Below are positions 3 through 27,200 of a DNA stretch of 53,808 nucleotides, piece by piece. Within the stretch, counting starts at the first letter, position 1. Each line of letters starts with the position of its first letter. This DNA comes from a virus (lineage: Duplodnaviria; Caudoviricetes). The stretch covers positions 1 to 53,808 of the IMG/VR virus record IMGVR_UViG_3300027586_000011; one strand, written 5' to 3'. A program made the translations under genes and the position numbers. The notes under the pieces are model-generated. The model searched no databases. It had not been told where the DNA came from and saw nothing but the letters and a program-made list of their open reading frames with translations.

Positions 3-269
3 AATCCAATATACTCATGGCCTAAGTCTGCTTACCGATCTGGTGAATTCTTGGTTAAGATTGCAAATGGATCTAACACAGATATTTCAAAAATCCTTGT
101 GACACTTGATTCTTCAGACAATGTTGCTATTACAGAATACGGAATGGTCTCAACAGGATCATCTCTTGGATCAGTAACAGCAGATGTTTCTGGAAGCAAT
201 GTTCGTGTTATGGTTACAACAGCAAATAATACATCAACTATATCAGTTGTTGGTACCTTGCTTGCCTAA
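3..269 (+). CDS. C-terminal part of a probable tail fibre/virion appendage protein (5'-truncated by window edge)
   Basis: Frame is open from position 3 (NPIYSWPKSAYRSGEFLVKIANG...), so the track's TTG start at 51 is internal. Beta-rich S/T/V composition; lies next to other fibre-like genes. Confidence 0.55.
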   Translation, partial: NPIYSWPKSAYRSGEFLVKIANGSNTDISKILVTLDSSDNVAITEYGMVSTGSSLGSVTADVSGSNVRVMVTTANNTSTISVVGTLLA

Positions 270-304: not shown

Positions 305-757
305 ATGGCAACAGTCGATAAAGACTTTAAGGTCAAGAATGGACTACAGGTCGCAGGATCTGGTAGTTTTGGAGGGACCTTAACAGTATCAACCCCAACA
401 GCGGATGCACATGCAGCAACAAAAGCGTATGTAGATTCTCTAACAGGGATGACTGTATCATCAACTGCTCCTTCTTCACCAACTAATGGCAAGCAGTGGC
501 TAGACACCACAACAAACAGAGTTAATTTCTATTACAATGGTTCTTGGTATACCCAAGCAACTATTGATGATACAAATAATCTTTCAGAGCACATTCACGA
601 TACCGCAATTGATGGAACAGGTTTCATTGTTTCGCAGTTCTATAATGCTGGAAGTTTTAATAGCCCATTGGGTGTAGGTTTGGATGCAGGTGGCCCCTCT
701 ACAACAGAGTGGACAGTTGTATTCGATGGCGGTAGTGCAGTAGATAATTTCAATTAA
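305..757 (+). CDS. Small virion/tail-fibre-associated protein
   Basis: 150 aa. PTADAHAATKAYVD and SSTAPSSPTNGKQWLDT motifs are typical of phage fibre proteins. SD-like GGGAG upstream. Confidence 0.55.
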   Translation: MATVDKDFKVKNGLQVAGSGSFGGTLTVSTPTADAHAATKAYVDSLTGMTVSSTAPSSPTNGKQWLDTTTNRVNFYYNGSWYTQATIDDTNNLSEHIHDTAIDGTGFIVSQFYNAGSFNSPLGVGLDAGGPSTTEWTVVFDGGSAVDNFN

Positions 758-814: not shown

Positions 815-2479
815 ATGGCAACAAGAATGCAACAGCGCAGAGGAACTGCAGCACAATGGACTGCTGCAAACCCAGTTCTCGCAGCAGGAGAAATTGGATT
901 TGAGACAGACACTAACCAGTTCAAGATCGGCGATGGAGTCAATCTTTGGCAAGCCCTGTCTTACTTCAAGAACCTAGAAGACCTTGGTGGTTCTCTAGAT
1001 GATTATATTTTGGTAACAGCACGATCAGCAGCAAACGGTGTAGCACCACTAGATGCCCAAGGCGAAATCCCACTAGGCTTTATGGCTAAACTAGTTGATG
1101 GAGCAGATTCAAGCCTTAACACTCTAAGAGAACTTGGAGATTCAGTACAACTTAACACTGGTCACAGAAACTCATCAACAAATGTTCACGGAATTACAGA
1201 CACTGCAGCACTTACTACAACAACACTTCTTAATGCAGCAATTGCTACAGAAGTATCCAGTAGAGATGCAGCAGTATCAACACACAACGCTGATACAACA
1301 GGAGTACACGGAATTGCTGATACTTCAGCACTTGCATTAACTGCAACAGTTGCAACAGATATTTCTACAGCAGTTTCAACACACCAAGCAGATACAACTT
1401 CAGTTCACGGAATTGCAAACACTGCAAACCTAGCATTACTAACAGATGTTTCAGGTTCAGTGTCACTTCACAACTCAGATACAACAGATGTGCACGGAAT
1501 TCAAGATACATCAGCGTTAGCAACAAAAGAATACGCAGACACAGCAGTTTCAACACACCAAGCAGATACAACTTCAGTTCACGGAATTGCAAACACTGCT
1601 AATATAGCAATGCTTGCTGATGTTTCTAATCACTCAGATGATACAACATCAATTCACGGAATTTCTGACACAGCAAATCTAGCATACCTTTCAAACATTT
1701 CTGATCATAATTCAGATACTACAGATGTTCATGGTATTGCTGACACATCAGCACTTGCTACAACAGTAGCAACTGCTTCAGCAATTAGCACAGCAGTATC
1801 AAATCACACTGCAGTTACAACAAATGTACATGGTATTGCTGACACAGCACTCCTAGTCACAACAACTGGTACACAAACTCTAACAAATAAAACAATTACA
1901 TCACCTACAGGACTTGTAAAAGCAGATGTGGGACTTGGAAATGTTGATAATACAGCAGATACAGCAAAGCCAGTATCTACATCACAGGCTTCAGCAATCG
2001 CAACAGCAAAGGCAGAAGCAATCGCAGATGCAACATCACAGGTTAACGCACTACTAACTGGTGCACCAGCAGCCCTCAACACACTTGATGAACTTGCTGC
2101 AGCACTTGGCGATGATGAAAACTTTGCATCATCAGTAACAACTAGCCTTGGATTAAAGGTAGATTCTTTAACACCAATTTCACAAAAGACAGCATCATAC
2201 ACACTTTCATCATTAACTGAAAGAGATGACTTAATTGAGATGGGTTCAGCATCAGCGCTAGTTCTTACAATTCCAACAGATGCTACACTTAACTATCCAA
2301 TTGGAACTTCAATTGATATTCTCCAAACTGGAGCGGGACAAGTAACAATTGCCCCAGTATCAGGAACAGTTACAGTTAATGCTACACCTGGCTTAAAACT
2401 TCGTACAACTTGGTCATCTGCAACTCTCTTTAAGAGAGCAGCAAATACATGGGTTGTCTTCGGCGACTTGACAGCGTAA
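815..2479 (+). CDS. Tail fibre protein with Mtd-like (major tropism determinant) N-terminal domain and His-containing repeats
   Basis: N-terminus MQQRRGTAAQWTAANPVLAAGEIGFETDTNQFKIGDG matches the Mtd_N pattern. Also 8 copies of Hx7HGI, plus KADVGLGNVDNT and APAALNTLDELAAALG fibre motifs. Confidence 0.8.
   Translation: MATRMQQRRGTAAQWTAANPVLAAGEIGFETDTNQFKIGDGVNLWQALSYFKNLEDLGGSLDDYILVTARSAANGVAPLDAQGEIPLGFMAKLVDGADSSLNTLRELGDSVQLNTGHRNSSTNVHGITDTAALTTTTLLNAAIATEVSSRDAAVSTHNADTTGVHGIADTSALALTATVATDISTAVSTHQADTTSVHGIANTANLALLTDVSGSVSLHNSDTTDVHGIQDTSALATKEYADTAVSTHQADTTSVHGIANTANIAMLADVSNHSDDTTSIHGISDTANLAYLSNISDHNSDTTDVHGIADTSALATTVATASAISTAVSNHTAVTTNVHGIADTALLVTTTGTQTLTNKTITSPTGLVKADVGLGNVDNTADTAKPVSTSQASAIATAKAEAIADATSQVNALLTGAPAALNTLDELAAALGDDENFASSVTTSLGLKVDSLTPISQKTASYTLSSLTERDDLIEMGSASALVLTIPTDATLNYPIGTSIDILQTGAGQVTIAPVSGTVTVNATPGLKLRTTWSSATLFKRAANTWVVFGDLTA
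1367..1599 (+). repeat. 59-nt exact direct repeat (1367-1425 and 1541-1599) within tail-fibre repeats
   Basis: acagcagtttcaacacaccaagcagatacaacttcagttcacggaattgcaaacactgc occurs twice, in frame. Confidence 0.9.
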
Positions 2480-2512: not shown

Positions 2513-3499
2513 ATGGCAGCAGGTAAAAGAATAGGTAAAAAGTCCCAGGCGTCAAATGACTTCTTGGAGCCATTAGCACCAACAGGTGTTACAGCAACAA
2601 ATGTTGGAACAGGAAGAGCATTTAATAATGGTGCAATTACTGTATCATTTTCTCTACCAGCACTTTCTCCTAATGCCACATCTTTTACAGCATCAGCATA
2701 CTGTAGCGTTCATGGTGTAACTCACACTGCAACAGGTGCATCTTCTCCATTAACTATTACTGGTTTTGGTTCTGGTGTTGCTACAACCGTTACAGTAACA
2801 GCAACTAACGCTGCAGGAACTTCAGCAGCATCCACTGCTTCATCATCGGTAACTGTCACAACGATTCCAGCAACCCCAGGTGCCCCATCTGCAGTAACAA
2901 ATGCTAATCTAGCATCTGATACAGTGTCTTGGACAGCACCAGCAACTGGTGGTTCTGCAATTACTGGATATACTTGGGCATCATCAGATTCAAAAACTGG
3001 AACAACAGCCTCAACATCTGCTGTTGTAGGACAAGAACAAGGAACTGCACAAACATATACAGTTTTTGCAACAAATGCTAATGGTAACTCATTAACATCA
3101 TCATCATCTGGATCTGTTACAACATTCTCGTTTACGCCATTTGCGTTTACGCCATTTTCATTTACACCTTATGCTTTTACTCCGTACTCATTTACGCCAT
3201 TTTCGTTTACTCCGTATGCGTTTACTCCGTATTCATTTACGCCATTTTCATTTACACCTTATGCGTTTACTCCGTACTCATTTACGCCATTTTCATTTAC
3301 ACCTTATGCGTTTACTCCGTACTCATTTGTACCATTTTCGTTTACTCCGTACTCATTTGTACCAGCCTATTCGTTCACACCGTATTCATTTACACCAGCA
3401 TATTCATTTACACCTTATGCGTTTACACCAGCAGGCGGATGTCGTGGTTCAAGACCATATCCATACTGCTTCTGCCAAGGCAGCATCTGGGCCTGCTAA
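2513..3499 (+). CDS. Fibronectin type III-domain protein with aromatic pentapeptide repeat tract and Cys-rich C-terminal peptide
   Basis: Two FN3-like units (APTGVTAT...TVTATNAAGTS; PGAP...VSWTAPATGGSAITGY...YTVFATNANGNS), then 20 x [FY][SA]F[TV]P, then AGGCRGSRPYPYCFCQGSIWAC. SD AGGAG upstream. Confidence 0.8.
   Translation: MAAGKRIGKKSQASNDFLEPLAPTGVTATNVGTGRAFNNGAITVSFSLPALSPNATSFTASAYCSVHGVTHTATGASSPLTITGFGSGVATTVTVTATNAAGTSAASTASSSVTVTTIPATPGAPSAVTNANLASDTVSWTAPATGGSAITGYTWASSDSKTGTTASTSAVVGQEQGTAQTYTVFATNANGNSLTSSSSGSVTTFSFTPFAFTPFSFTPYAFTPYSFTPFSFTPYAFTPYSFTPFSFTPYAFTPYSFTPFSFTPYAFTPYSFVPFSFTPYSFVPAYSFTPYSFTPAYSFTPYAFTPAGGCRGSRPYPYCFCQGSIWAC
3125..3430 (+). repeat. Coding tandem repeat, 15-nt unit x20 with 45-nt higher-order period
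   Basis: Units such as ttttcatttacacct / tatgcgtttactccg / tactcatttacgcca. Perfect 45-nt periodicity across 3233-3328; two single Ala insertions near the 3' end. Confidence 0.95.
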
Positions 3500-3503
3500 C
3501 TTC

Positions 3504-3512
3504 TGATATACT
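3504..3512 (+). promoter_or_regulatory. Extended -10 promoter (TGATATACT)
   Basis: TGnTATACT just after the stop of the FN3 gene; SD-like AGAGG before GTG 3541. Confidence 0.5.
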
Positions 3513-3540
3513 ATAAGTATAAACAGAAAGAGGCTAGTCA

Positions 3541-4257
3541 GTGGAAACAGAATATAACGAAAGTTCATATGCTTTTCTTGTAGAAAATGAAGTTTTTCAT
3601 ATTTTTCATGCAATTGCAGTAGAAGAATCTATTTCAAGCGGTTATAAAGAAGGATTTAATAATAATCCAATAGGAATAGACCTAGAATACTATCCCTTAG
3701 CCATGCGTGGTGATATTTGGACTGGATCAACATTTTCTTATAATCCAGAAGAGACTATTGTTGCATATGATGGAACATCTATGAATAGATCAAAAATGCC
3801 AGCGTTAGATACATCTCAATTTTCAAGATATGGTTTTATATCAAACAATAAATTATTTTTTGCTATGGTTTTTCCAAAGGGAACAGATCAAGAACTTATG
3901 TGGAAAAATGCATTTAAAACTGGAGCCAAAGCCCTAGATGTAACAGAATATAAAGATATTGAAGTAGGAGATAAACTAATAAACGATGCATTTGTTAAGG
4001 CAGACAACACTCAGGTTTTTAAAGATGGAACAAGCAGTTGGTCAAAATGGAAAAGTAATCTTGGAGATGCAAGACCATGGCATATGTTAAATCCAGGACA
4101 AAAAAAGGTAGATACAGAAACAGCAAAAACAAGAATGTCAATATGCCAGGCATGTCCAGAGTTAATCAAAGCAACAACAACATGCACTAAATGCGGATGT
4201 TTTATGAAACTTAAAACCAGACTTGAGGGCTCTTCTTGCCCTATAGGAAAGTGGTAA
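3541..4257 (+). CDS. Hypothetical protein: two tandem small domains plus C-terminal Cys-rich (DUF6171-like) metal-binding domain
   Basis: Internal duplication (YAFLVENEVF...GDIW / YGFISNNKLF...GDKL). C-terminus RMSICQACP...CTKCGCFM..K......CPIGKW. Confidence 0.6.
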   Translation: METEYNESSYAFLVENEVFHIFHAIAVEESISSGYKEGFNNNPIGIDLEYYPLAMRGDIWTGSTFSYNPEETIVAYDGTSMNRSKMPALDTSQFSRYGFISNNKLFFAMVFPKGTDQELMWKNAFKTGAKALDVTEYKDIEVGDKLINDAFVKADNTQVFKDGTSSWSKWKSNLGDARPWHMLNPGQKKVDTETAKTRMSICQACPELIKATTTCTKCGCFMKLKTRLEGSSCPIGKW

Positions 4258-4258
4258 A

Positions 4259-5050
4259 ATGAAACAGTTATATTTTTTACATATACCAAAAACTGCTGGT
4301 CAGTTTATAACAGAAGCAATAAGAGTTGCTTTAGAAAACAACAACATAAAAGATTATTTTATATACAATGGTGCTTTTGTCTCAGAAGAAAAGTTAAAAA
4401 CTTGTGTATACATAGGGTCGCACTTTGGAACCTATCCAATTGACATTATTCCTGAAATAGATACAGTTACAGTTTTAAGAGATCCAGTTGAAAGATCTGT
4501 TAGTCAATTTAATTTTTTATATGAAGAAAGATATAAAGACTTATACAAAGAAATTGATGGATACATATCCCGTCTTAGATTTTATCTTTTTGAAGATGAG
4601 AATGTAATTGGACTGAGAAATTATCAGGCTAGATTTTTGTGCAATGCTGCAGATAGCAGAAGGTTTGAATCAGAAGAAAATTTTAAATCAGTTCTAGAAG
4701 AATTAATTGTTCCGTTTGGACTTGGATTTCCAAATACTTGGTTTGTTGGAAATGAACTAACAAGTCTAAATCTTGCAAAATCTAAACTAGATAATATGTC
4801 AATAGTTGGAACTTCTGATAATCTTGATCCAGTTTTGGAAAAAATTAAGGTTTGGTTTCTAGAAAATTATGATGTAGAAATAAAATATTTACAAGACAGA
4901 ATTAACTCAAGCAGCATAACTGAAGATGGGGTAGAGTACACTACAGAAGATTGTGTTGCAATGCTTACAGAAGAAGAAATAAACACATTAAAACAATTAA
5001 ACAGCATAGATCAAGAGTTATACGAATATGCTAAAATTTTGTCAATGTGA
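4259..5050 (+). CDS. Sulfotransferase (Sulfotransfer_2-like)
   Basis: PAPS-binding motifs FLHIPKTAG (5'-PSB) and LRDPVERSVS (3'-PB); C-terminal LNSIDQELYEYA typical of the family. Confidence 0.8.
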   Translation: MKQLYFLHIPKTAGQFITEAIRVALENNNIKDYFIYNGAFVSEEKLKTCVYIGSHFGTYPIDIIPEIDTVTVLRDPVERSVSQFNFLYEERYKDLYKEIDGYISRLRFYLFEDENVIGLRNYQARFLCNAADSRRFESEENFKSVLEELIVPFGLGFPNTWFVGNELTSLNLAKSKLDNMSIVGTSDNLDPVLEKIKVWFLENYDVEIKYLQDRINSSSITEDGVEYTTEDCVAMLTEEEINTLKQLNSIDQELYEYAKILSM

Positions 5051-5078: not shown

Positions 5079-5789
5079 ATGAACAATATTCAGTTTTTAT
5101 CATCTTTGCCAGAGTTTGCGTCTATCTTCCCATTACCAGAACCTGGACAAAAACTTGTTCCAGAATGGTATAGAAAACAACCAGGCCTTATTGATGACAA
5201 ATATGAAGGTGGTACTCTAAAACTTACAGTAAAAAAATGTCAACCATTTTTTGACGCAATGTCTATGGGCTATATTTTTAGGATGCCAGTAGATTTATAT
5301 ATTAATACAAAAAATGGAAAACTTGATTTTCAAATACCAAGAGAGTTTGAATCTCATCATGCCCACATAATCGCAAATCATTCAACAGAGCAAGTGTCTC
5401 ACTATCCAATAGATCTTAATGTTTATGTAAATCATATACTTAGAATACATCCTATGTGGATGGTAAAGACTCCACCAGGATACAGTACACTATTTACTAG
5501 TCCTGCACACCAACCACATATTCCAATCAAAGCAGTAGATGCTATAGTTGATACTGATAATTTCTTTTCAGATGGACATATATCTTTCTTTTTAGAAAAA
5601 GATTTTGAAGGTGTTATAAAGCAAGGAACTCCAATTATTCAGATTCTTCCTTTTAAAAGAGATGACTGGGAAATGACAGTTGATCCAAACCATGATCCAT
5701 TAATAACCGAAATTCAAAGAAAGGGAGTTAGATCTTCTTTTCAAAATGGTTATAGAATGAAGCATTGGGTTAAGAAAATATTTAAGTAA
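5079..5789 (+). CDS. Phage accessory protein of unknown function (possibly DUF6065-like, beta-rich)
   Basis: 236 aa. Motifs PEWYRK, TVKKCQPFFDAMSMGY, TPPGYSTLFTSP, AIVDTD and IKQGTPIIQILPFKR, a pattern I recognise from phage accessory clusters. Function not assignable. Confidence 0.5.
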   Translation: MNNIQFLSSLPEFASIFPLPEPGQKLVPEWYRKQPGLIDDKYEGGTLKLTVKKCQPFFDAMSMGYIFRMPVDLYINTKNGKLDFQIPREFESHHAHIIANHSTEQVSHYPIDLNVYVNHILRIHPMWMVKTPPGYSTLFTSPAHQPHIPIKAVDAIVDTDNFFSDGHISFFLEKDFEGVIKQGTPIIQILPFKRDDWEMTVDPNHDPLITEIQRKGVRSSFQNGYRMKHWVKKIFK

Positions 5790-5872: not shown

Positions 5873-7906
5873 ATGTCAGATTTTTTTAGTTTTAAACTTC
5901 CAGAGGACTTCGTAGAAAAATACAAGAACCAAGAAAGCCCATTTGGGTTTAAGGATGCAGCAGAAAATTCACTTGGAGAAATTACTTTTATTCGTACATA
6001 TTCTCGCATGAAGGAGGATGGAACTAAAGAAAGATGGCATGAGGTTTGTCGTCGTGTAATCGAGGGTATGTATTCAGTTCAGAAGAATCATGCTAAAGAA
6101 AACCGTTTGCCTTGGAATGACTACAAGGCACAGAAGTCTGCACAAGAAGCATTCCAAAGAATGTTTGAATTAAAGTGGACACCCCCAGGACGAGGTATGT
6201 GGGCATTCGGAACTCCTATGACTATGGAGAAGAAGAACTCAGCAGCACTACAAAATTGTGCAATGGTTTCTACAAAAGACCTTGATAAGAACGATCCAGG
6301 AGCCTTGTTTGCTTGGGTTATGGATGCTCTTATGCTTGGCATTGGTGTAGGGTTTGATACAGTAGGACAGGATAAGCATTTCTCAATCTATGCCCCGACA
6401 GAACCAGAACAGGTGTTCGAAATCCCAGACACTCGTGAAGGATGGGTAGAGTCAGTGCGAATCCTTATCAACTCATACCTTAGAGCAAACCAAAGCATTC
6501 AGAAGTTTAACTACGATTTAATTAGACCTCTTGGAGCCCCTATAAAGGGCTTTGGAGGCGTTGCATCAGGACCTGCACCTCTTATCAAGTTGCACAACCA
6601 TATAGACCGTGTAATAGGCTCTAGAGGCGGGGAAACACTAGACTCTCGTGCCATTGTAGACCTAGTAAACCTCATTGGTACCTGTGTGGTATCAGGCAAT
6701 GTTCGTAGATCAGCAACTCTTGCTTTGGGAAATGCGGGGGATGAAACATTTATGAATCTAAAGAACTCAGAACTATTCCCAGAGCGTAACTCTTTTGATC
6801 CAGATAATCCAGGTTGGGCTTGGATGTCTAATAATTCTATTTCAGCAGAGGTAGGAACAAAGTACGAAGACTATGTAGATTTAATTACAGAAAATGGAGA
6901 ACCAGGTTTTATCTGGCTTGATGTTGCTCGTAATTATGGCAGACTAAAGGATGCGCCAGATGGAAAAGACTATCGTGTGATGGGCTTTAATCCCTGTGCG
7001 GAGCAGCCATTAGAGTCATACGAATTATGTACACTTGTAGAAGTGCATTTGAATCGTCATGAATCTAAGGAAGACTTCCTGCGTACCCTGAAGTTTGCAT
7101 ACCTATATGGAAAGACTGTAACACTTGTTCCAACACACTGGCCACAAACAAACGGCATCATGCAACGCAACCGTCGCATTGGCACATCACTTACAGGTAT
7201 TGCATCATTTGCAGATCAAAAAGGTTTGCCAATAGTTCGTGAATGGATGGACGAAGGATACAACAAGATCCGCCACTACGACCACCAGTATTCAGAATGG
7301 CTATGTGTTCGTGAATCAATTCGTGTAACTACAGTTAAGCCATCAGGATCAGTCTCAATTCTTTCTGGTGCAACTCCTGGAGTTCACTGGGGTCCTGGAG
7401 GAAACTTCTTCCTTCGTGCAATTAGGTTTGGAAACACCGATCCAATGATACATTTGTTCAAAGCAGCGGGGTATACAATTGAAGACGATGTTGTATCAGC
7501 AAATACATCAGTTGTATATTTCCCAATTAAATCAGGTCATCCAAGATCTGAAAAAGATGTGACACTATTTGAAAAAATTGCACTTGCTGCAACTGCTCAA
7601 AAGTATTGGTCTGATAATGGAGTTTCTGTCACATTATCCTTTGATAAAGAAACAGAGTCAAAACATATTGTCCCAGCACTTAATATGTACGAAGGACAAC
7701 TAAAGGCTGTTTCGTTCCTACCAATGGGAAACACAGTTTATCCACAGCAACCATATACAGGTATTACTGAGGAACGGTATGAGTCATATATCGGGAAGTT
7801 GAAGCACATTGATTTTGCTGCAATTTACGACGGTGTGGATAATCTTGAGGCACAGGGTGAAGCCTATTGCACAACAGACTACTGCGAAATTAAAATAAAC
7901 AAGTAG
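5873..7906 (+). CDS. nrdJ: Class II (adenosylcobalamin-dependent) ribonucleotide reductase, monomeric RTPR type
   Basis: RTYSR, WTPPGRG, LQNC, GNVRRSA, GFNPCAEQ (radical Cys), ELCTLVE, TTVKPSG and C-terminal CTTDYC redox pair. No beta-subunit gene nearby; no intein evident. Confidence 0.92.
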   Translation: MSDFFSFKLPEDFVEKYKNQESPFGFKDAAENSLGEITFIRTYSRMKEDGTKERWHEVCRRVIEGMYSVQKNHAKENRLPWNDYKAQKSAQEAFQRMFELKWTPPGRGMWAFGTPMTMEKKNSAALQNCAMVSTKDLDKNDPGALFAWVMDALMLGIGVGFDTVGQDKHFSIYAPTEPEQVFEIPDTREGWVESVRILINSYLRANQSIQKFNYDLIRPLGAPIKGFGGVASGPAPLIKLHNHIDRVIGSRGGETLDSRAIVDLVNLIGTCVVSGNVRRSATLALGNAGDETFMNLKNSELFPERNSFDPDNPGWAWMSNNSISAEVGTKYEDYVDLITENGEPGFIWLDVARNYGRLKDAPDGKDYRVMGFNPCAEQPLESYELCTLVEVHLNRHESKEDFLRTLKFAYLYGKTVTLVPTHWPQTNGIMQRNRRIGTSLTGIASFADQKGLPIVREWMDEGYNKIRHYDHQYSEWLCVRESIRVTTVKPSGSVSILSGATPGVHWGPGGNFFLRAIRFGNTDPMIHLFKAAGYTIEDDVVSANTSVVYFPIKSGHPRSEKDVTLFEKIALAATAQKYWSDNGVSVTLSFDKETESKHIVPALNMYEGQLKAVSFLPMGNTVYPQQPYTGITEERYESYIGKLKHIDFAAIYDGVDNLEAQGEAYCTTDYCEIKINK

Positions 7907-7931: not shown

Positions 7932-10900
7932 ATGTCTACTCCATCGAACCTATATGCAGAAAAAATATTTAGTGAGCATCCAACTGCTTTGTGGGCGCTT
8001 GATGATCCAGTAGATTATTTATCATTAATTACAGAAAACCAAAGAAATATGGTTTCTTGGCCAACACCAATAAATGGATCAGTATCGACATATAGTGAAT
8101 TCTCTAACCAGCCTTTTGTTTCAAGTTCAATGTTCAAAGTTACAATGACAAGCCATGCCTCTAATATAAACTATACAACGCTTGTAAGTAATGACATAAC
8201 AAATTTTAGCAACCTTAGTAGCGACCTTGGAACATTTTCAATTGGTACATACATAAACTCAATAAGTCCATATATCGCAGAAGTTGCCATTGGCTTTGAG
8301 TATAATAGTTCTTATACTGGAGAGTTAATCCAAAACATAAAGAACTACACAATGCAAATTTCAGACTCTTGGAATTTTATTTCTGAAACATTTGATAGGC
8401 CAGATGACAACACTACCTTTAGAGTTGTAATAAAAATTGGCGCCTACTCTGGCGGGACAAATTCAGAGTATGATTTTTTAATAAATGGATTAACTGTAGG
8501 ACAATGGTCAGAAGAGTTTAATTCTTCTTCTCTTGGAATTTCCCCATCATCTTTACCAAGCACCATATCAATTCTTGGAGGATCAAGCGGGTACACAGCG
8601 AAAGCATATGGACTAGACGAAGACAATGGATACTACCTAATTAATAGCAATATATTAAGAGCAAGAAACAATGGCATTCCGCTATGCTACGGATCCTCAA
8701 ACTTGACATCTGTCTATCCAAACGGAACACTTCCTTCAATCATAATTCCTGGAAAAGGATTTTTAAATGAGGTTGGCAAATATCAAGATTATACTGCAGA
8801 ATTTTGGCTAAGAGTTAATTCTGACGCAGTAACAGAAAAAAGAATCTTTGGACCAATTGCTTCAGATGATGGCTTATATGTGAACGGTCCATTCATAATG
8901 CTTAAAATAAATAATAATACAAAATCTCACTATGTCGGAGAATGGTATAGACCAATGCTAATTGACATAAGAGTTTTAAAAAATTCTGCATCACTTTTAA
9001 TAAATGGAGAAGAAGTTCTATCAATGTCTTTTCAGACATCTGATTTGATTTTTCCAGAAGAATACTCGGTTGATAATAAAAATCAAAACTGGCTAGGGTT
9101 TTGGTCTTATGAGGATGTTACCCCAATGGAACTAGACTGTTTTGCCCTATACTCTTATTCTGTTTCACAGATGCTTGCAAAAAGAAGGTTTGCTTATGGG
9201 CAAGCAGTTGAGTTTCCAGAAAATATAAATACATCATACAGTGGTTCCTCTGTCTACATTGATTACCCTTTTGCAGATTACACAAGTTCTTATTCTTATC
9301 CCGATTTAGGAAACTGGAGCCAAGGATACAGAGACAACCTATCAATCAATGGAACCACCTTGGCAAACACAGAATACAGTCTTCCAGAAATTGTTTTAAA
9401 TAATAAAACACAGGCACAGTTTTACTCTGATTGTTCATCAGTGCAAAATGAATCTGAAAAATTTTTTGCAATTCAGCACAACAACTCTTCTCAAACAAAT
9501 GGATATATGCTATTTGATAAGTTTGAATATATTCAAGATCTAGTTTACTCTTTCTACGGAATATTTAAAAAGAGAAAATTAGTATCTGGTAAAGAAACAT
9601 TAATTAGGTTCCAGTCTGACCAATCAAACGATTACTTTGAGATATGTTTAAATGATTCAGAAATTAGTTATGAGTTAAGATATAACGATTCTTTAGAAGT
9701 GTTAGCACAGTCTGTTTCTGTTCCTATTGGAGAAAAGTTTATTGCTGGGTTGAACATTCAAAAGTTTGTAGAGTATCACGGTGGAAATGTTGCATCATTC
9801 TTCGGAAATAGGCAATCGTTAAAAATATATCTAGGTGGAAACAAATTAATGGAAAAGACATTCCATGGAAATATTTATAAGTTTGCACTGCTAACAGAAA
9901 GAAACTTTCAAGACATATCTCAACTATTTAATGAAGAGAATGGATTGCCACTACTTTTTGATGATGTTTTTGATATTTATATAAATGCAGATCTCTCTCT
10001 TGGTGCCGATTCTGGATTACTTACACAATCTCAGGTATGGGATTATTATATGGACGGCGGTTCAAAAACTTTACAAGAATATACTAGTAGCCCAGACGAC
10101 ACAGCGTTATGGCCAGAAGAACTTCCTCAAATAGGAGATCACGTGGCAAGTTATACTTTATTTGCAACTACACTATTTGAAGAATACATTTTGGATGTTG
10201 CGGTTCAAGGATACTGGGAAGACAATCTTCCACTAACCTACCTTGCTCAATATGTAACAGATAGCCGTGGTAAAAAGTATTATGACTTAGATTTTATTCA
10301 ATTTAATTTAAATTATCCAGCACCTTCAAAATTTATTCAGGAAACTGTTGACTCTGATTGGTCTTATGCAGAACTTCAAGAAAAGTTTTCTGTTCCAGTT
10401 GTGAGAGAGTATTCTTCATTAGACAATCATCTTTTTACTGGGTATGAAGATTATACTGATTTAAAAAATAACTCTTTAAAAACATTTAGGTATGACACAA
10501 CCGACTCCTTAGTTAAGTCTTATGTAACTTTTCAATATACAGAATCAGGAGCCAATGAATCTGATTCTTATTTTATTTACAAGGAAAAAGCATCAAAATA
10601 TGGAGTAGTGGAGCCAGGAGAAAATTGGATTAATACAAAGTATGAGGTTGTAAACAACATGCTTATCTATCCACCAAAAGATGCAGACATTCTTTCTTTG
10701 TCAATTGTGTATAGCCTTAACTTTATTGTTCGTGGAATCAGATCTGGCAGAATTAAACTTAGAAACCTTCAACTATGTTCACAGGCGTTTAATGCTACTG
10801 AGCCTAACGCCGTAGGAACAAGATTTGGAAACAACATTTATCCTTATAAAAAGTTAAATTATTATTACAACTATAAAACAAGAAACCCATTTACAATTTA

Positions 10901-11672
10901 CAAAGGAAGCACACCGTATTTATATTTGACAAGATTCAGCGGTATAGAGTTAAAAGACCAGTATGATCCTAAGATTAACAGAGGTCTTGCAATTCCTATT
11001 AACGAGTCAGAATCTAATAACTACAAGATATCATCAATTCAGATGGCAGTAAGATTTGACCAAGACTTTTTCCCATACTCAGAAGTACAAATTTTTCAAA
11101 TAGAATCTAAGGATGAACTTATAAAGGTTTTTATGAAAGCAAGCCAAAGAGATGGCAAGAGGGCAAAGATCTATGCAGTAAACGCTTCAACTGGCCAAGT
11201 AGATAATGGTATCTCATTTTATATTAATGGAAATGTAGTTAGAGAGCCACACATATCGGTTAAAGAGTGGGCATTTCTTGGAATGAACTTCACTGGTCTT
11301 TTAGATTTTAAAAATACTGTTGGATCATTAAACTTAACTGGTCCACTTACATTTAACACCATATCGTACTATAAGTCCACTCACCTACAAGAGATTCAGC
11401 AACAGTCAACGAGACCTTGGTTTAGAATTCAGGGCAATTTTAATAATGAAATCCCCTGGGATTTTTGGAGAACTCCAACTATTAAATGGAATGGTGTGCT
11501 CATTTTCTCAACAAAAAACTATTATGGAGTAGATCCTTCAGATGTTTATAAGAGTTATACAGGAACAGATAAGATAATCGTAGATTCTGACAAGGTTTTT
11601 AGTATCAATAGGTACAAATATACTATATATGGCGATGTTCAATGGCAACAGTCGGTCATCGATGCACTCTAA
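7932..11672 (+). CDS. Large virion structural protein, probably with LamG/concanavalin-like beta-sandwich domains
   Basis: 1246 aa. SEHPTALWALDD start and YTAEFWLRV, SLLINGEEV, SFYINGN beta motifs; lies upstream of the portal. Confidence 0.5.
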   Translation: MSTPSNLYAEKIFSEHPTALWALDDPVDYLSLITENQRNMVSWPTPINGSVSTYSEFSNQPFVSSSMFKVTMTSHASNINYTTLVSNDITNFSNLSSDLGTFSIGTYINSISPYIAEVAIGFEYNSSYTGELIQNIKNYTMQISDSWNFISETFDRPDDNTTFRVVIKIGAYSGGTNSEYDFLINGLTVGQWSEEFNSSSLGISPSSLPSTISILGGSSGYTAKAYGLDEDNGYYLINSNILRARNNGIPLCYGSSNLTSVYPNGTLPSIIIPGKGFLNEVGKYQDYTAEFWLRVNSDAVTEKRIFGPIASDDGLYVNGPFIMLKINNNTKSHYVGEWYRPMLIDIRVLKNSASLLINGEEVLSMSFQTSDLIFPEEYSVDNKNQNWLGFWSYEDVTPMELDCFALYSYSVSQMLAKRRFAYGQAVEFPENINTSYSGSSVYIDYPFADYTSSYSYPDLGNWSQGYRDNLSINGTTLANTEYSLPEIVLNNKTQAQFYSDCSSVQNESEKFFAIQHNNSSQTNGYMLFDKFEYIQDLVYSFYGIFKKRKLVSGKETLIRFQSDQSNDYFEICLNDSEISYELRYNDSLEVLAQSVSVPIGEKFIAGLNIQKFVEYHGGNVASFFGNRQSLKIYLGGNKLMEKTFHGNIYKFALLTERNFQDISQLFNEENGLPLLFDDVFDIYINADLSLGADSGLLTQSQVWDYYMDGGSKTLQEYTSSPDDTALWPEELPQIGDHVASYTLFATTLFEEYILDVAVQGYWEDNLPLTYLAQYVTDSRGKKYYDLDFIQFNLNYPAPSKFIQETVDSDWSYAELQEKFSVPVVREYSSLDNHLFTGYEDYTDLKNNSLKTFRYDTTDSLVKSYVTFQYTESGANESDSYFIYKEKASKYGVVEPGENWINTKYEVVNNMLIYPPKDADILSLSIVYSLNFIVRGIRSGRIKLRNLQLCSQAFNATEPNAVGTRFGNNIYPYKKLNYYYNYKTRNPFTIYKGSTPYLYLTRFSGIELKDQYDPKINRGLAIPINESESNNYKISSIQMAVRFDQDFFPYSEVQIFQIESKDELIKVFMKASQRDGKRAKIYAVNASTGQVDNGISFYINGNVVREPHISVKEWAFLGMNFTGLLDFKNTVGSLNLTGPLTFNTISYYKSTHLQEIQQQSTRPWFRIQGNFNNEIPWDFWRTPTIKWNGVLIFSTKNYYGVDPSDVYKSYTGTDKIIVDSDKVFSINRYKYTIYGDVQWQQSVIDAL

Positions 11673-21269: not shown

Positions 21270-24200
21270 TTGTCTGATGTAAATGCAAATATAAGTATCA
21301 ATTTTGATACTGGTCAAGCACTTGCAAGTTTACGTCAGTTACAGGCGGGTCTCAGCCGTTTTAATCAATCACTAACTCAGGGCAATGTCGCTGCTGCCAA
21401 TGCACAAAAGGGTCTTAATGACCAACTTATGCAGGCAATCAATGCCACTGGAAAGTTCGTTGCTACACAGAAAAATATAGCAACAAGTACATCTTCATTT
21501 ACATCAGCGCTTGAAAAAAATCAACTCTCAATGCGAGAGTACTTTAGGTATACTGCTGCTGCAGCGACAGCAAACACTAAAGTATTTAAAAACATGTTTG
21601 CCCAAGAGCGTGAGATTATTAACCGTGCTCGTAAAGATCGAGTAAAATCTCTTCAGGCTCAGTATATTCAGTTGTCAGATGCTTCAGGCAATTTTGTTAA
21701 AACTTTGCAGGTAGTTCCAAAGCACCTTCAAATGGTAAATGGTCAGTACGCAGACTATGCTACAAGAATGCAGATGGCAGCACAAAGACAGCAATTCTTG
21801 AATCAGTTGCTTAAGCAAGGCTCAACACAACTTCTAAACTTTGGTAAGAATACTCAGTGGGCAGGTCGCCAGTTAATGGTTGGTTTGACAATACCTCTAA
21901 CACTTCTTGGATCCACCGCAGCAAAAATATTTATGGAAATGGAAAAGGCTACAGTTAAATTCTCTAGAGTTTATGGAGATATGACAACTAGCGGAGATGC
22001 AACAAACAAAGCAATTGCAGATATTCAAAGATTAGGTAAAGAGTTTACTAAATATGGAGTAGCAGTAAAAGATACAATGGAAATGGCAGCATCTGCTGCT
22101 GCAATGGGTCTAACTGGAAATGCTCTAAATGCACAAGTAATTGCAGCAACAAGACTATCAGTTCTTGGACAAGTTGAACAGCAACAGGCTTTAGAGACAA
22201 CCATATCTTTAACAAATGCTTTTGGAATCGCAACTCAAGACTTAGCAAATAAGATTAACTTTCTTAACGCAGTAGAAAACCAAACAGTTCTTTCAATTGA
22301 AGATTTAACAATTGCCATTCCAAAGGCTGGACCAGTTGTAAAGCAACTTGGTGGATCTGTAGAAGATCTTGCATTCTTTATGACTGCAATGAAAGAAGGT
22401 GGAATCAACGCATCAGAGGGTGCTAACGCACTCAAATCTGGTCTTGCTTCTATGATTAACCCTTCAAAGAAAGCAAGTGAATTCCTTGCAGGCCTCGGTG
22501 TTAACATCAAAGGTATTGTAGAGGCAAACAAAGGAAACTTAAAAGGAACAATTGTTGGATTTGCACAAGCACTTGATACGCTAGACCCACTTAATCGTGC
22601 AAGAGCAATTGAGCAACTATTTGGTAAGTTCCAGTTTGCTCGTCTATCAACGCTATTCCAAAACGTAACAAAGGATGGATCTCAGGCATCCAGAGCACTT
22701 GCTTTAGCAGGAGCATCAGTTGAAGAACTAGCAATCTTATCTGAACGAGAACTTGGAAAAGTAGAGGATGCAACTGGTGTAAAATTTAAGAAGTCTATTG
22801 AAGACCTTAAGAATCAACTTATTCCAATAGGAAAAGCATTTCTTCAAGCAGCAACACCAATTGTAGAATTTGTTGGAAAACTATTAACAAAATTTAACAA
22901 CTTAAGTGAAGGAACAAAAAAGACTGTAGCAATTATTGTTGGAGTTGTCGGTGGCCTTGCTCCAGTTGTTTTGATGACATTTGGTGTTGTAATGAATGCA
23001 CTTGCAAATGGAATTAAATTATTTGCAAAACTTCGTGAGGGAGTTGCTAAACTTAACGGATCAAACAATGTTCTTGGCGGAGGGTTTGATTATTTAACAC
23101 AAGAACAGATTGAGAATGTTGCACAGACAAATGCGCTACATACATCACACTCTCAATTAATATCTACATTTAATATTGAAAAGTCTGCAGTGGATGGACT
23201 TGCAGCAGCATATGGAAACGCAGCAAGCCAAGCAAGAACATTAGCAGCATCCTCACCAGGATTATTTAACACTGTGCCAGGCCCAGCAGGTGCCGTTTCT
23301 GGATTACCTAAAAAGCCAATTGGGTTTGCACAAGGTGGTGTAGTTCCTGGAAGGGGAGATAAGGATACTGTCCCAGCAATGCTTACCCCTGGAGAAGTTA
23401 TTCTTACAAAAGACACTGTAAGAAATAATCCAGAGTTAGTTGCAGCATTACAAAATAATTCATTTAAGAAATATCATGATGGAACTGGTGGTGGCAGTGA
23501 AGACATTGCTGCTAGTTTAAGAGAAAGATTTACATCTACATCAGCACCAGGATCAGAAGCCTTCAAGGGAAGAATGAAAACATTAGTAGATGGAGCAATG
23601 TCGCAAACACAAAAAGGTGTAGAAAGAGTAATTAGGTTTGCAGCAGAATCAGGAGTAACAATTACTGCTGAGCAAACAGATCAAATAGAGTTCTATAGAA
23701 AAGAAATGCTTAAGTCAGTTCGACAGGCTGGAGATGCTCTAGTTGGTGCAATTGATTTAACTAAAGATCAAATTAAAGATAGACTTAAAACAATGTCTCC
23801 AATTGCAGGAACACAGGCTGCACCAAACAGAAACACATTTGATTTAGTTGATAAGCACGGTAGCCAAAACTTGTCTGAAACATTTGGTCACTTAACACCA
23901 GGAGTAAGAATGTCTGGTCCTCAAACTAGAGAAAGACTAGAGCCAGGATCAAAAGTTGCTACTGAAATTGATGCAATAGAGAGAGCAGCAAAACATTTAA
24001 ACAACCTTCCACAGTCTGACCCACGAAGACCTAAAACACCAATAGTTCCTGAATTCAATGTAGTCAGCGGACTTGGTATAGATGGCATGTCACAAGAAAC
24101 AAATACACTATTAAAAAATGGAACTAAAAATACACAAGAATTCTTAAATGAATTAGGCAATGTTGGACCAGTTCAAGCGTGGGATACACTAATGAAACAA

Positions 24201-27200
24201 AATGGCCTAACTATAGAAGAAAATGGCCGAGAAATAGAAATTTTACACGCAAAATTTAAGGCTTTTGTTGCAGACCTTGCAACAAAGAAAAAAGTAATTT
24301 CTGATGCAGATGTTACAGGATTCCTAACAGGAATAGAGAATGATCCAGATATTAGTCCAAGAATGAAAAATGCAGTATCAAGATCTAACAACACAATAAC
24401 AGCAGCCCGACTCAGTGGTGTTTCTTCTACAGATGGAGCAAACATAGAAGATGTTGTTAGAAGTGGAGAAGTAAAAGTACCTGGTTTAGTAGACCGTACA
24501 AAATTTAAAATTGCAAAATCTGGTAGTGCACAGGGTGGAGAGTCTGTATCTAATAGAGTTAATGGAATTGGATTCTATGATGCAGAAGTAGAAAAACAAC
24601 TAGCAGCAGAAGCAGAAACACTTAGACCTCCACGAGTAAGGGCTACTCCAGAAGCAGAAGCAGATGCTGAACTAGAAGGTGAAAAGATTGGCAAAGCAGC
24701 GACAAGAGGTGTAAGGAAGGGTGCAAAAACAGAGTCTCCTTCTACAGATGGAATTGAAGTTGGTAAAGATATTGCAGAAGGAGTTGTCATTGGTTTGCAA
24801 CAAGGAACACCAGGGGTTGTTTCTCAATCAGAACAACTTGGTAATGCTGCAGTTCCAAAAGAAGTAATAAACGAAAAGATGGATGTTGGAAACAAGGCAT
24901 TCTATGATGACCTTAATAATCCAGAAGACTATGAAGAAAGACAAATTCTTAAATCAGAAGATAGGCAAAGAAGAAAACTTGGTAAGGCTCGTGCAAGTGT
25001 TGGCAAAACGGATATCGACAACAAGCAATTTTATGATGATATTGATACTCCAGAATTTCGTGAACAAAGACAAATACTTAAGTCTCAAGATAGACACAGA
25101 AGAAAACTTGCTGCTGTTGGTCAGGTAGGAGCAGCAACGCCAACTGATGTACCTTCTCAGACTGCACAGTTAACTGCTGCCTCATCAAAAAGAGTTACAA
25201 CTGCAACTGAAAAATTAGCAGTTAAAACAGAAGAAGCCGCAATTGCTCAAGCCCAGATAGTTCAACAAATTAAGGATGAGAGTAGGTCAAGAGTTACGAT
25301 TAAGGGCAATACTGTAAATATTGGTAAGGCTCGTGAATTAGCGGATAAGGCTGAAAACGAAGCAGCAATTACTAAAGCCCGTGCACATGCACTTGAAGCA
25401 GAACAAGCAAAGCAAAAGAAATCAAACTCACCAACAACAATTACTGATGAACAGGTACTTGCTGCTAAAGAAAAAGCAAATGCTGCAGAATTAGAGTATA
25501 CACAAATAAGAAAAGAATTAGCAGAACAGGGTATAGGAGCAGCCCAACCAGCAGAAATTAAAAAAGATCAAGAAGTTATGTCTAATGGAACCGTTGAAGC
25601 AGGAGACGGTATGAGACGAATTGTTGAGGGTACAGACGACACAGCAGACTCAACTGTACTAGTTGCAGATAAAACAGATGAACTTGCCAGCATAACTGGA
25701 GAAGCAGTTGATGCTCAGATGGCAAATACAACCAACCTAATAACTGGTAGCAAATTAACAAATGCAACTACACAAAATCTTGGAGAAGTTCTTCAAGCAA
25801 CAGATCAAACTGGATTAGCCCAAGGTGATCTTGCAGAATCTTCAGAAAATACTGCTAGACTTAGTAAAGATATTGAAGAAAAAAAGAGAAAAGAAAACGA
25901 ACTAGCCAAAAAAAGACTTGCTCGTCTTATGGCTGAAGAATCTGTGGATGGAGTTATTCCTCCAGGTACGCAATCAGCAAGCAAGTATATTAACCCAGAA
26001 GAAGCCATGGGCGCAGAAGAAGCATATGACTATGCAATGGGAAGCGATCCAGACCCAAACGATCCAACAGATAAAGGTCAGACTGGTTTTACAAAAGATA
26101 AATTTGGCAAAATTCTAATTGATCCAGAAACTGGAAATCCAACACATCTTACAAAGAAAGAACTCACAAAAAAGACACGCGGACTTCGTAAGGAGAAGGT
26201 TAGTAAGATATCTGGTAAGGCAGCAGGAGCATTAGGAACAGCAACAATGGTTGCGGGTATGGCTGGTGCTCCACCACAGGTAACAGCAGCACTCGGCGCT
26301 GCAGCAACTGTTGCTCAGTTTGCACCAGCACTTGCAGGTATGGGCCCAATCGGTTGGGCAGTAGCAGGTATTGCAGCAGTAGGTGCATCTGCTTATTTGG
26401 TCAACAAACATTTTGAGGGAATGGCAAAAGCACAGGCAGAGTATGTAAGAAATACAACTGCAAGTTCTGAAAAACTAAAAGCCATTGGAGAATTAAACGG
26501 TGTCGTTGGTGCCAATGAAAAAATGAATAAGCGTAGAGAAAATGGACAACTTCAGGGATACAACGAAGTAGAAAGAAAAGGAACTGACTACGGAGTTAAG
26601 TATTTAGAAAATGCAACTGGAAAGTTAATGATGGATTCTCTTAAAACTAGCATTAATAAGACTGGAGCAAAAGAAGCAGCAGAAGAGGTTGCACTACAAC
26701 TTGCTGCACAGGTATCTGATGGAGTGCTTACTGCTGAGCAGGCAAAGAGTGTTGCATATCAGATTGGACTTAATCTAAAAGACTCTACAATGACAATGAA
26801 TATTAATGGAAATCTGAGAGCACTTATTGGACCTAACGGAGAAGATCTTATTAACGATCCATTTACAGCAAGAATGAGACTTGTTGCAGTTTCAGAAAAC
26901 AAAACAAAGACTGCTAAAGCAAATATTAAAAAGGCTCAAAAAGAAAATATTGGCTGGTCTTGGATGGGTCTTAAAAAATCTGGAGCAAATGAGGCTGCAC
27001 AGGTCGCAGCGCTTTCTGGTGCTGCAGTTGAAATGGCTTTGCTTCAAGCAGACTCAATGGCGGTATATGTTGAAAAGCAAAAAGAAACTCTTGAAGCACA
27101 AAAGGCAATCACAAAAGATAAAGCAGAGCAATTAAGAATTGATACGCAACTAGCAAACCTTGACTCAATGTCAGCAAGAGCAAATGCAAGAGTTGCTGTA

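Follow-up and report, generated by a model that had tools for sequence, protein, structure and literature searches.

The stretch of DNA analysed here, called the window below, is a linear virus record of IMG/VR (IMGVR_UViG_3300027586_000011; Duplodnaviria, Caudoviricetes) of 53,808 nucleotides, with an estimated completeness of ~50%. On the plus strand, positions 2513..3499 hold an open reading frame (ORF) encoding a 328-residue protein, P0001, which consists of a conserved N-terminal peptide, two fibronectin type III (FN3) domains, an aromatic-proline repeat and a four-cysteine tail, followed by the stop codon. The repeat (3125..3430, plus strand) is the element examined here. It comprises 20 units of the form [FY][SA]F[TV]P in 102 residues, of which 39% are aromatic, 20% are proline and none is charged.

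Direct translation in the frame of ORF 2513-3499 resolved the tract into 18 pentapeptides and two AYSFTP hexapeptides, with a composition of F27 Y13 P20 T18 S14 A8 V2. This amounts to 40 aromatic residues and no D, E, K, R or H, exactly the charge-free tract with regular prolines that a first-pass annotation, made from the sequence without database searches, had described. The proline-proline autocorrelation was non-zero almost only at lags 5, 10 and 15. Against the 20 observed [FY]xFxP units, shuffling the whole protein 2000 times gave 0.49 on average and never more than 5, and 2000 shuffles confined to the tract gave 2.03 on average and never more than 8. Tandem Repeats Finder placed the core of a 45-nucleotide (15-residue) super-repeat at 3146..3345 on the plus strand (4.4 copies, 91% matches, score 337), which corresponds to the FSFTP-YAFTP-YSFTP arrangement proposed earlier, and also found the 15-nucleotide period at 3131-3430 (19.6 copies, 67% matches). 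Copies of the 45-nucleotide unit are 1-5 nucleotides apart, in line with the recent duplications that had been suspected. Phe3 and Pro5 are constant in all 20 units while the codons for Thr, Pro, Ser and Ala differ synonymously, as the same annotation had noted for Thr, Pro and Ser. Phe3 is encoded by TTT in 19 units and TTC in one, proline by CCA (9), CCT (4) and CCG (7), threonine by ACG (5), ACA (7) and ACT (6), and serine by TCA (10) and TCG (4). We further noticed that, of the 60 tract codons for Thr, Pro, Ala and Ser, 21 are of the NCG type (ACG, CCG, GCG, TCG), compared with 3 of 114 upstream in the gene; this excess may reflect codon diversification that limits DNA-level identity between the repeats.

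Assembled freshwater metagenomes (Logan contigs) reproduced the tract piecewise. Two runs, X1 and X2, matched positions 2872-3307 with 0 differences, and a third, X3, covered 3052-3399 and 3389-3539. Support across the tract came with 0-3 differences per piece, no single contig spanned all of it, and X1 is possibly the source sample; stretches left uncovered in X1 and X2 carry no weight as evidence. One X3 contig joins position 3232 to 3278 and is thus exactly 45 nucleotides (one super-repeat) shorter, with otherwise 0 differences. This may be a collapse of the repeat in assembly rather than a natural allele, with 51 nucleotides ambiguous at the joint. The +2-frame ORF at 3141-3506 (121 residues, rich in His, Leu and Arg) was rejected as a by-product of the stop-free repeat.

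To assess constraint on the encoded peptide, we compared codons with those of the closest relative (L001, 81% identity). Within the tract 43 codons were identical, 43 differed synonymously and 10 non-synonymously, with one indel of six residues; the N-terminal 204 residues gave 92 identical, 68 synonymous and 39 non-synonymous codons. Constraint on the repeat is thus no weaker than on the folded domains that precede it. The substitutions visible in this alignment fall at the small residue in position 2 of the unit. The tract is therefore translated and under purifying selection, as the first-pass annotation had surmised from the codon pattern, and Phe3 and Pro5 are conserved at ~100% across the family.

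Relatives of the protein are numerous. Of 8,000 candidates scored in a word-seeded HMMER search, at least 1,675 qualified as homologues (E<=1e-3), all of them metagenomic, and at least four aromatic units were found at the same position in 120 of 120 homologues among the matches listed. In IMG/VR, 214 stretches encode relatives, and 80 loci, many of them truncated, were kept for locus counts; 74 of the 80 have at least four units at this position. The other six (L019, L042, L044, L046, L047 and L070) carry instead a pure (FGA)n tripeptide run without proline, in genes that start near 5983-6001 (991 in L042); the run reaches at most ~26 copies, in L019, and is followed by a Hint-size domain. 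Tract statistics were taken from 171 distinct relatives. In 169 of these the tract is free of charge, and charged residues make up 2 of 10,901 tract residues, compared with 8.2% of residues upstream. The family unit has F (.71) or Y (.29) at position 1, G, S or A at position 2, F (1.00) at position 3, T, S, V or A at position 4 and P at position 5. Its commonest form is FGFTP, with 268 of the units counted, and other lineages have PFFPP, PYFVP or eight-residue FGAFGFTP units at the tract position. The 15-residue super-repeat is limited to the window and its close relatives. Phe3 and Pro5 are near-invariant; what the sequences conserve across the whole family is thus composition and a rough alternation, not one geometry.

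The number of units varies considerably. Among the 171 relatives the tract ranges from 4 to 30 units, or 18 to 164 residues, and its length differs in 9 of 22 protein pairs that are at least 95% identical before the tract. In the clearest case, the proteins of L055 and L056 are 100% identical before the tract and have identical tails, with 18 units in one and 9 in the other. All length changes are in frame and are multiples of 15 nucleotides, which makes this a length polymorphism and not an on/off contingency switch. The earlier suggestion of a length-variable contingency locus therefore holds for the variation between genomes and fails for the switching.

We then examined the remainder of the protein with an AlphaFold2 model, computed as a monomer from a 49-sequence alignment (A1). 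The N-terminal peptide (residues 1-21, 2513..2575, plus strand) contains a short predicted helix at residues 11-17, and in A1 its residues K5, F17, L18 and P20 show little or no variation; it may serve in docking. An FN3-like domain follows at about residues 22-117 (2576..2863, plus strand), with strands between residues 24 and 98, a predicted local distance difference test (pLDDT) score >90 and support from Foldseek. The second FN3 domain (about residues 118-204; 2864..3124, plus strand) was recognized by the model, by Foldseek and by a weak Pfam fn3 match at residues 128-197 (E 6.4e-4), which at 20.3 bits is under the 25-bit cut-off and is the sole Pfam listing for P0001 at E<=1. Several relatives pass this cut-off, for example P0016 with 36.5 bits and P0045 with 39.4 bits. 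Foldseek matched the pair to tandem FN3 structures (4bqb at E 1.5e-11, 3lpw and 1qg3; E 1e-11 to 1e-10, TMt 0.5-0.65). Its matches in BFVD were annotated 'Fibronectin type III [uncultured Caudovirales phage]' or as actinophage minor tail proteins, and a search of the ESM Atlas gave FN3 clusters only. Across the repeat the model had pLDDT <50 and no secondary structure at residues 224-307. The 22-residue tail (3431..3496, plus strand) follows the pattern C-x-G-x-[KR]-P-Y-P-Y-C-x-C ... W-x-C and is predicted to form a small beta-hairpin knob (pLDDT ~81, strands 320-322 and 325-327). This PYPYC tail ends 8 of 317 distinct proteins examined, including the PASTA-type protein P0134.

What follows the repeat differs greatly between relatives. 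In 89 of the 171 it is a domain of at least 120 residues (Hint-size), in 32 a Cys-rich segment, and in 50 only a few residues. The large domain is Hint/intein-like, of the bacterial intein-like (BIL) type, on the combined evidence of profiles and a predicted fold, and its autoprocessing is putative. A profile of nine Hint-domain examples (alignment A2), searched against the PDB, found 22 sequences at E<=1, the best being the gp41-1 intein (E 4.8e-7), with other inteins and the Clostridium thermocellum BIL domain 2lwy (1.2e-4) also among them. Pfam assigned Intein_splicing to six and Hint_2 to three of the nine, with scores below the curated cut-offs. An AlphaFold2 model of the domain (pLDDT 84.4, predicted template-modelling score 0.80) gave 51 Foldseek matches at E<=1e-3; the best was BIL2 of Tetrahymena (6y75, template-modelling scores 0.69/0.76), and inteins, 2lwy and the hedgehog autoprocessing domain 1at0 were also found. 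Cys is the first residue in six and His-Asn the last in six of the nine A2 sequences. Many Hint domains have Cys directly after the repeat and end with His-Asn plus 0-3 residues, and others start with Ser and end with His-Asp plus a tail. BIL2 of Tetrahymena joins the domain before it to lysines in an ATP-independent reaction (PMC8616854), and in polymorphic toxins HINT domains set free the C-terminal toxin (PMC3417536). Since the Hint domain is terminal in the relatives studied here, toxin release does not apply to them. The resemblance to BIL and Hint proteins (2lwy, 6y75, 1at0) therefore lies in the Hint-fold domain placed directly after the repeat, with its Cys or Ser at position 1 and often His-Asn at the end; it differs in that the domain is terminal and not an intein inside a host protein, and in that the window's own protein lacks it. 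In P0001, 22 residues follow the repeat, and a Pfam scan at E<=1 found no Hint or intein match.

The repeat, recognizable by clear YSFTP-type units, also occurs in other architectures among the proteins of these phages. A search of 1.84 billion representative sequences with residues 196-328 gave 966 matches at E<=1e-3 and 150 at E<=1e-10. The first 60 of 146 new listed proteins were screened, and only sequences that had been read were used, as many matches were unrelated low-complexity proteins and the counts overstate the family. P0129 and P0134 consist of a PASTA domain, repeat, a Cys-closed domain, repeat and a PYPYC tail, which in P0134 is homologous to the window's tail. P0122 has PASTA and repeat, then four TSP1-like modules with the repeat after each, and a Cys tail, and P0179 has PASTA, repeat, a Cys domain, repeat and a Hint domain. 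P0144 is a 1018-residue FN3-rich protein in which the repeat leads to a domain that is Hint-like by eye, with no family match, and P0124 begins with a fibre domain and continues with repeats that alternate with Cys domains. The tract thus has the position and the variable length of an inter-domain low-complexity linker: in the window's protein it lies between the FN3 pair and the four-Cys knob, and in P0122, P0129, P0134, P0179 and P0144 it separates PASTA, TSP1-like, Cys-closed and Hint modules.

A conserved fibre cassette on the plus strand ends with the repeat gene; its order is a large fibre-like gene, a 150-residue gene, a fibre gene with an Mtd_N domain and the repeat gene. Of the first of these the window holds only the 3' end, at 3..269, which matches the end of a homologous 524-residue protein (L202:8395-9969); the gene was found in 52 of the 80 loci. 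The 150-residue fibre-like protein (305..757) has weak PHROG tail-fibre matches and lies upstream in 65 of the 80. The 554-residue fibre (815..2479) has an Mtd_N N-terminus (Pfam E 1.4e-15), HG-x-x-DT repeats and a C-terminal domain of ~100 residues; it also matches PHROG tail-fibre families and stands directly upstream of the repeat gene in 77 of the 80. Its C-terminal domain is 35% identical (E 4e-9) to residues 152-222 of P0124, a protein that continues into YSFTP repeats. The closest relative has, ~6 kb upstream on its contig, a second such pair, namely a 210-residue protein followed directly by a PASTA-repeat-PYPYC protein, and the C-terminal domain of the 210-residue protein is 40% identical (E 5e-16) to that of the 554-residue fibre. 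Together, the two parallel gene pairs and the P0124 fusion argue for a function of the repeat proteins in company with these fibres or at their ends.

The window also encodes portal, protease, capsid, tail and replication genes. Its ribonucleotide reductase (RNR) shares 61% identity with the enzymes of Actinomycetia phage DSL-LC01 and Mycobacterium phage Gaia, and its major capsid protein (MCP) shares 43% identity with the capsid proteins of Streptomyces phages of ~127 kb. We take the phage to be an uncultured freshwater siphophage, probably an actinophage. When we searched 50,697 phage records with the gene and the protein (blastn and tblastn), a collection that may lack near-identical records, we obtained 0 matches. 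The 150-residue neighbour likewise gave 0 matches, and no cultured phage among these records has the cassette.

Taking these results together we favour, at roughly even confidence, the reading that a fibre-associated adhesin carries the tract as an aromatic-proline stalk or linker, tunable in length and probably sticky, which comes close to the hydrophobic adhesive stalk proposed in the first-pass annotation. Selection preserves the order aromatic-small-Phe-[Thr/Val]-Pro and keeps charge out, without fixing an exact sequence, and the tract gains and loses length in frame, in steps of 15 and 45 nucleotides, on this reading through slippage or unequal recombination. The stalk would join a conserved and presumably virion-proximal part, made up of the N-terminal peptide and two FN3 domains, to an end module that can be exchanged. 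In the window's protein this module would be the four-Cys knob; relatives would have a self-cleaving Hint/BIL domain or almost nothing in its place. Extended or disordered, it would set the reach of that module; at ~3 Å per residue a fully extended chain of 102 residues would measure ~30 nm. Its dense aromatic rings would probably also make weak multivalent contacts with glycans of the host cell wall, or with the tract itself. An adhesive role is suggested because about three in ten relatives (50 of 171) end with the repeat itself.

Several points weigh against this reading. A spacer of this size would be an odd design for a knob of 22 residues, and the relatives with nothing after the repeat imply that a linker cannot be the whole function. 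With 39% aromatic residues and no charge, the tract is expected to dissolve poorly, a property easier to reconcile with self-association or a folded core than with a free tether. Low AlphaFold2 confidence is not proof of disorder, as low scores are common for repeats whose multiple sequence alignments are shallow or misaligned, and the model would fail to show an ordered oligomer. Finally, we infer the location on the virion from synteny, the gene fusion, a weak match to phrog_6977 'minor tail protein' (E 0.002) and fold likeness, and the host from the freshwater runs together with the RNR and MCP similarities.

A rival reading makes the tract an ordered homo-oligomeric fibre, for example a trimeric beta-spiral or beta-helix, or a cross-beta, amyloid-like aromatic ladder, whose folding would be nucleated by the C-terminal knob or Hint domain; the aromatic-zipper fibre and amyloid-like element of the first-pass annotation are of this kind. 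We consider it rather unlikely. High aromatic content speaks against a soluble coil, the alternation of aromatic and small residues with a proline at each fifth position suits short beta-strands with turns, and the gene belongs to a fibre cassette; moreover, the 15-residue super-repeat recalls the adenovirus shaft repeat, and exchangeable, possibly released Hint modules resemble the auto-cleaving chaperone domains of tailspikes. The period, however, is not kept. Units of five (FSFTP, FGFTP, PFFPP), eight (FGAFGFTP) and three residues ((FGA)n) occupy the same position, which would be hard to accommodate in one fold, and the super-repeat is found only in close relatives of the window. In addition, copy number halves between otherwise identical proteins, and the AlphaFold2 monomer shows no structure. 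Another rival holds that the tract matters mainly as DNA, a repetitive cassette for recombination where C-terminal modules are swapped between phages, with its peptide a tolerated by-product. It lies exactly between N-terminal 200 residues conserved at 60-80% identity and highly variable C-terminal modules, it flanks other shuffled modules as well, and its fast gain and loss of units points to active recombination or slippage. The constraint on the protein (43 synonymous against 10 non-synonymous codons, Phe3 and Pro5 at ~100%, charge excluded in 169 of 171 relatives) makes this improbable as a full explanation, and the diversified tract codons, with NCG rare upstream, lower DNA identity and do not raise it. 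Recombination at the tract can be a complement to a selected stalk, not a replacement for it.

Two further proposals concern the chemistry of the units. As a mucin-like scaffold for dense modification, by O-glycosylation of Thr/Ser near Pro, hydroxylation or sulfation, the tract would be functional and soluble in its modified form, which would remove the solubility problem. Its units do hold Ser and Thr two residues apart and a Thr-Pro dipeptide, and weakly matching Sulfotransfer_2 and DUF6065-like genes lie nearby. Both of these family matches are below cut-off, though, the sulfotransferase-like gene is present in only 5 of 80 loci, the neighbours scanned include no glycosyltransferase or hydroxylase, and the FGA and PFFPP variants have neither Ser nor Thr; we consider this proposal quite improbable. 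Far less credible still is a precursor akin to ribosomally synthesized and post-translationally modified peptides, from which tandem cores would be freed by Pro-directed cleavage, as the first-pass annotation had raised. Many near-identical short units that end in proline, and the Cys-rich C-termini of some relatives, would suit it. The tract is nevertheless preceded by ~200 residues of folded FN3 and not by a leader peptide, and in sister proteins the repeat stands between folded domains. Neither a protease nor a maturase was found among the neighbours, which are the genes of the fibre cassette, a DUF6171 gene, the weak sulfotransferase- and DUF6065-like genes and RNR, and this suggestion is disfavoured.

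The adhesive-stalk reading can be taken further by analogy, with considerable doubt. The tract could be an extracellular analogue of a cohesive phenylalanine-glycine (FG) domain, forming on the phage fibre a brush of uncharged polymer that sticks to itself or to glycans. In most relatives its C-terminus could be activated as a thioester by the Hint/BIL domain and ligated, independently of ATP, to an amine of the virion or cell wall, as with Tetrahymena BIL2 and ubiquitin-like domains; P0001 would have a knob held by disulfides or metal instead of this chemistry. The FG domain of Nup98 also precedes an autoproteolytic domain, which serves here as an analogy only. Like FG nucleoporins, the tract is uncharged and predicted to be unstructured, with regularly spaced Phe, and some relatives have FGFTP or (FGA)n units. 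It differs in that the two are not homologous, Gly and hence FG are absent from the window's tract, hydrophilic spacers are absent here and in relatives, the aromatic density is several-fold higher, and the setting would be an extracellular virion.

Low-complexity linkers and stalks are known elsewhere, as in the collagen-like G-x-y segments of phage fibres and the Pro/Thr 'PT' linkers of actinobacterial glycoside hydrolases. The tract shares with them a repetitive, Pro/Thr-rich sequence of variable length between folded binding modules, and the gain and loss of units. Its 39% aromatic content, lack of Gly and strict exclusion of charge set it apart, a composition that we did not find in the literature. 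Adenovirus and reovirus shafts are triple beta-spirals of 15-residue repeats; the tract resembles them in its 15-residue super-repeat, alternating hydrophobic residues, turn-forming prolines and viral fibre context, whereas its 15-residue period is lineage-specific and family units have 3, 5 or 8 residues. C-terminal chaperone domains nucleate the folding of other phage fibres, and tailspikes have auto-cleaving ones. With the pentapeptide-repeat proteins of PF00805 (A[D/N]LXX, a right-handed quadrilateral beta-helix) the tract has in common a tandem period of five residues; its consensus is [FY][SA]F[TV]P instead, it has no Pfam match at E<=1, and its low-confidence AlphaFold2 model (pLDDT <50) contains no beta-helix. 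Our literature search, which did not extend to most subscription journals or to supplements, found no description of this repeat or of Hint domains in phage fibres, so the module is apparently undescribed.

Host recognition by phages depends mainly on their fibre proteins, and hardly any phages that infect abundant freshwater bacteria have been cultured. The module described here is widespread, occurring in at least 1,675 proteins and on 214 viral contigs. It is ~40% aromatic, ~20% proline and essentially uncharged, can double in length, and combines with PASTA, FN3, Cys-knob and putatively self-cleaving Hint modules. If it is a sticky or cohesive tether, it would offer a simple physical means of tuning phage reach and adsorption, and would be a natural case of an aromatic low-complexity material with an extracellular function. 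The terminal Hint/BIL domains raise the idea that fibre components may be matured or covalently attached via intein-like chemistry; a cohesive brush anchored in this way would make a new class of phage adhesion device, which joins a phase-forming repeat to self-catalysed covalent anchoring. For annotation, the motif can serve as a marker of fibre or adhesin genes in this phage lineage.

Other genes of the window were recorded alongside, all on the plus strand. Directly downstream of the repeat gene, 3541-4257 encodes 238 residues with a Cys-rich C-terminus, a match to phrog_13558 and one to DUF6171 (E 7e-6) that at 26.7 bits falls just short of the cut-off of 27; this gene is present in 12 of the 80 loci and always downstream of the repeat gene. 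It is followed at 4259-5050 by the gene with the weak Sulfotransfer_2 match (E 3e-4, below cut-off), and at 5079-5789 by the DUF6065-like/phrog_7084 gene, below the curated cut-off, which occurs in the downstream flank of 68 of the 80 loci. The products of the latter two could be modification enzymes. Between RNR and the portal region, 7932-11672 encodes a protein of 1246 residues that is present in 12 of the 80 loci (44-87% identity) and gave no matches in Pfam or PHROG. An ORF of 3350 residues with a TTG start (21270-31322) lies between tail genes and is presumably a very long tape-measure protein. In the fibre region of the closest relative's contig we noticed a collagen-like (G-x-y) fibre protein (L202:2067-2792, plus strand) and an ORF that by eye is lytic transglycosylase- or lysozyme-like (L202:6083-6673, minus strand).

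We also scanned the DNA of cellular genomes for four consecutive units. At least 120 loci were found, mostly short non-coding tandem repeats that fit the degenerate pattern. Only a few cases, in long ORFs, are real, and the scan carries little information on frequency. Runs of SPFAFSP pentapeptides were observed in cellular proteins at L100:835-6057 (plus strand; 1741 residues, from a Pseudomonadales metagenome-assembled genome) and L177:3-659 (minus strand). These lie, by eye, inside a domain of the pre-peptidase C-terminal type and look like an independent use of F-x-F-S-P in a secreted bacterial protein. Finally, in an Edaphobacter metagenome-assembled genome, a stop-to-stop frame of 754 residues (L160:808-3069, plus strand) has five FNFSP units at its end; by eye the protein resembles a phosphoesterase, and the units look like an aromatic pentapeptide tail on a cellular enzyme.

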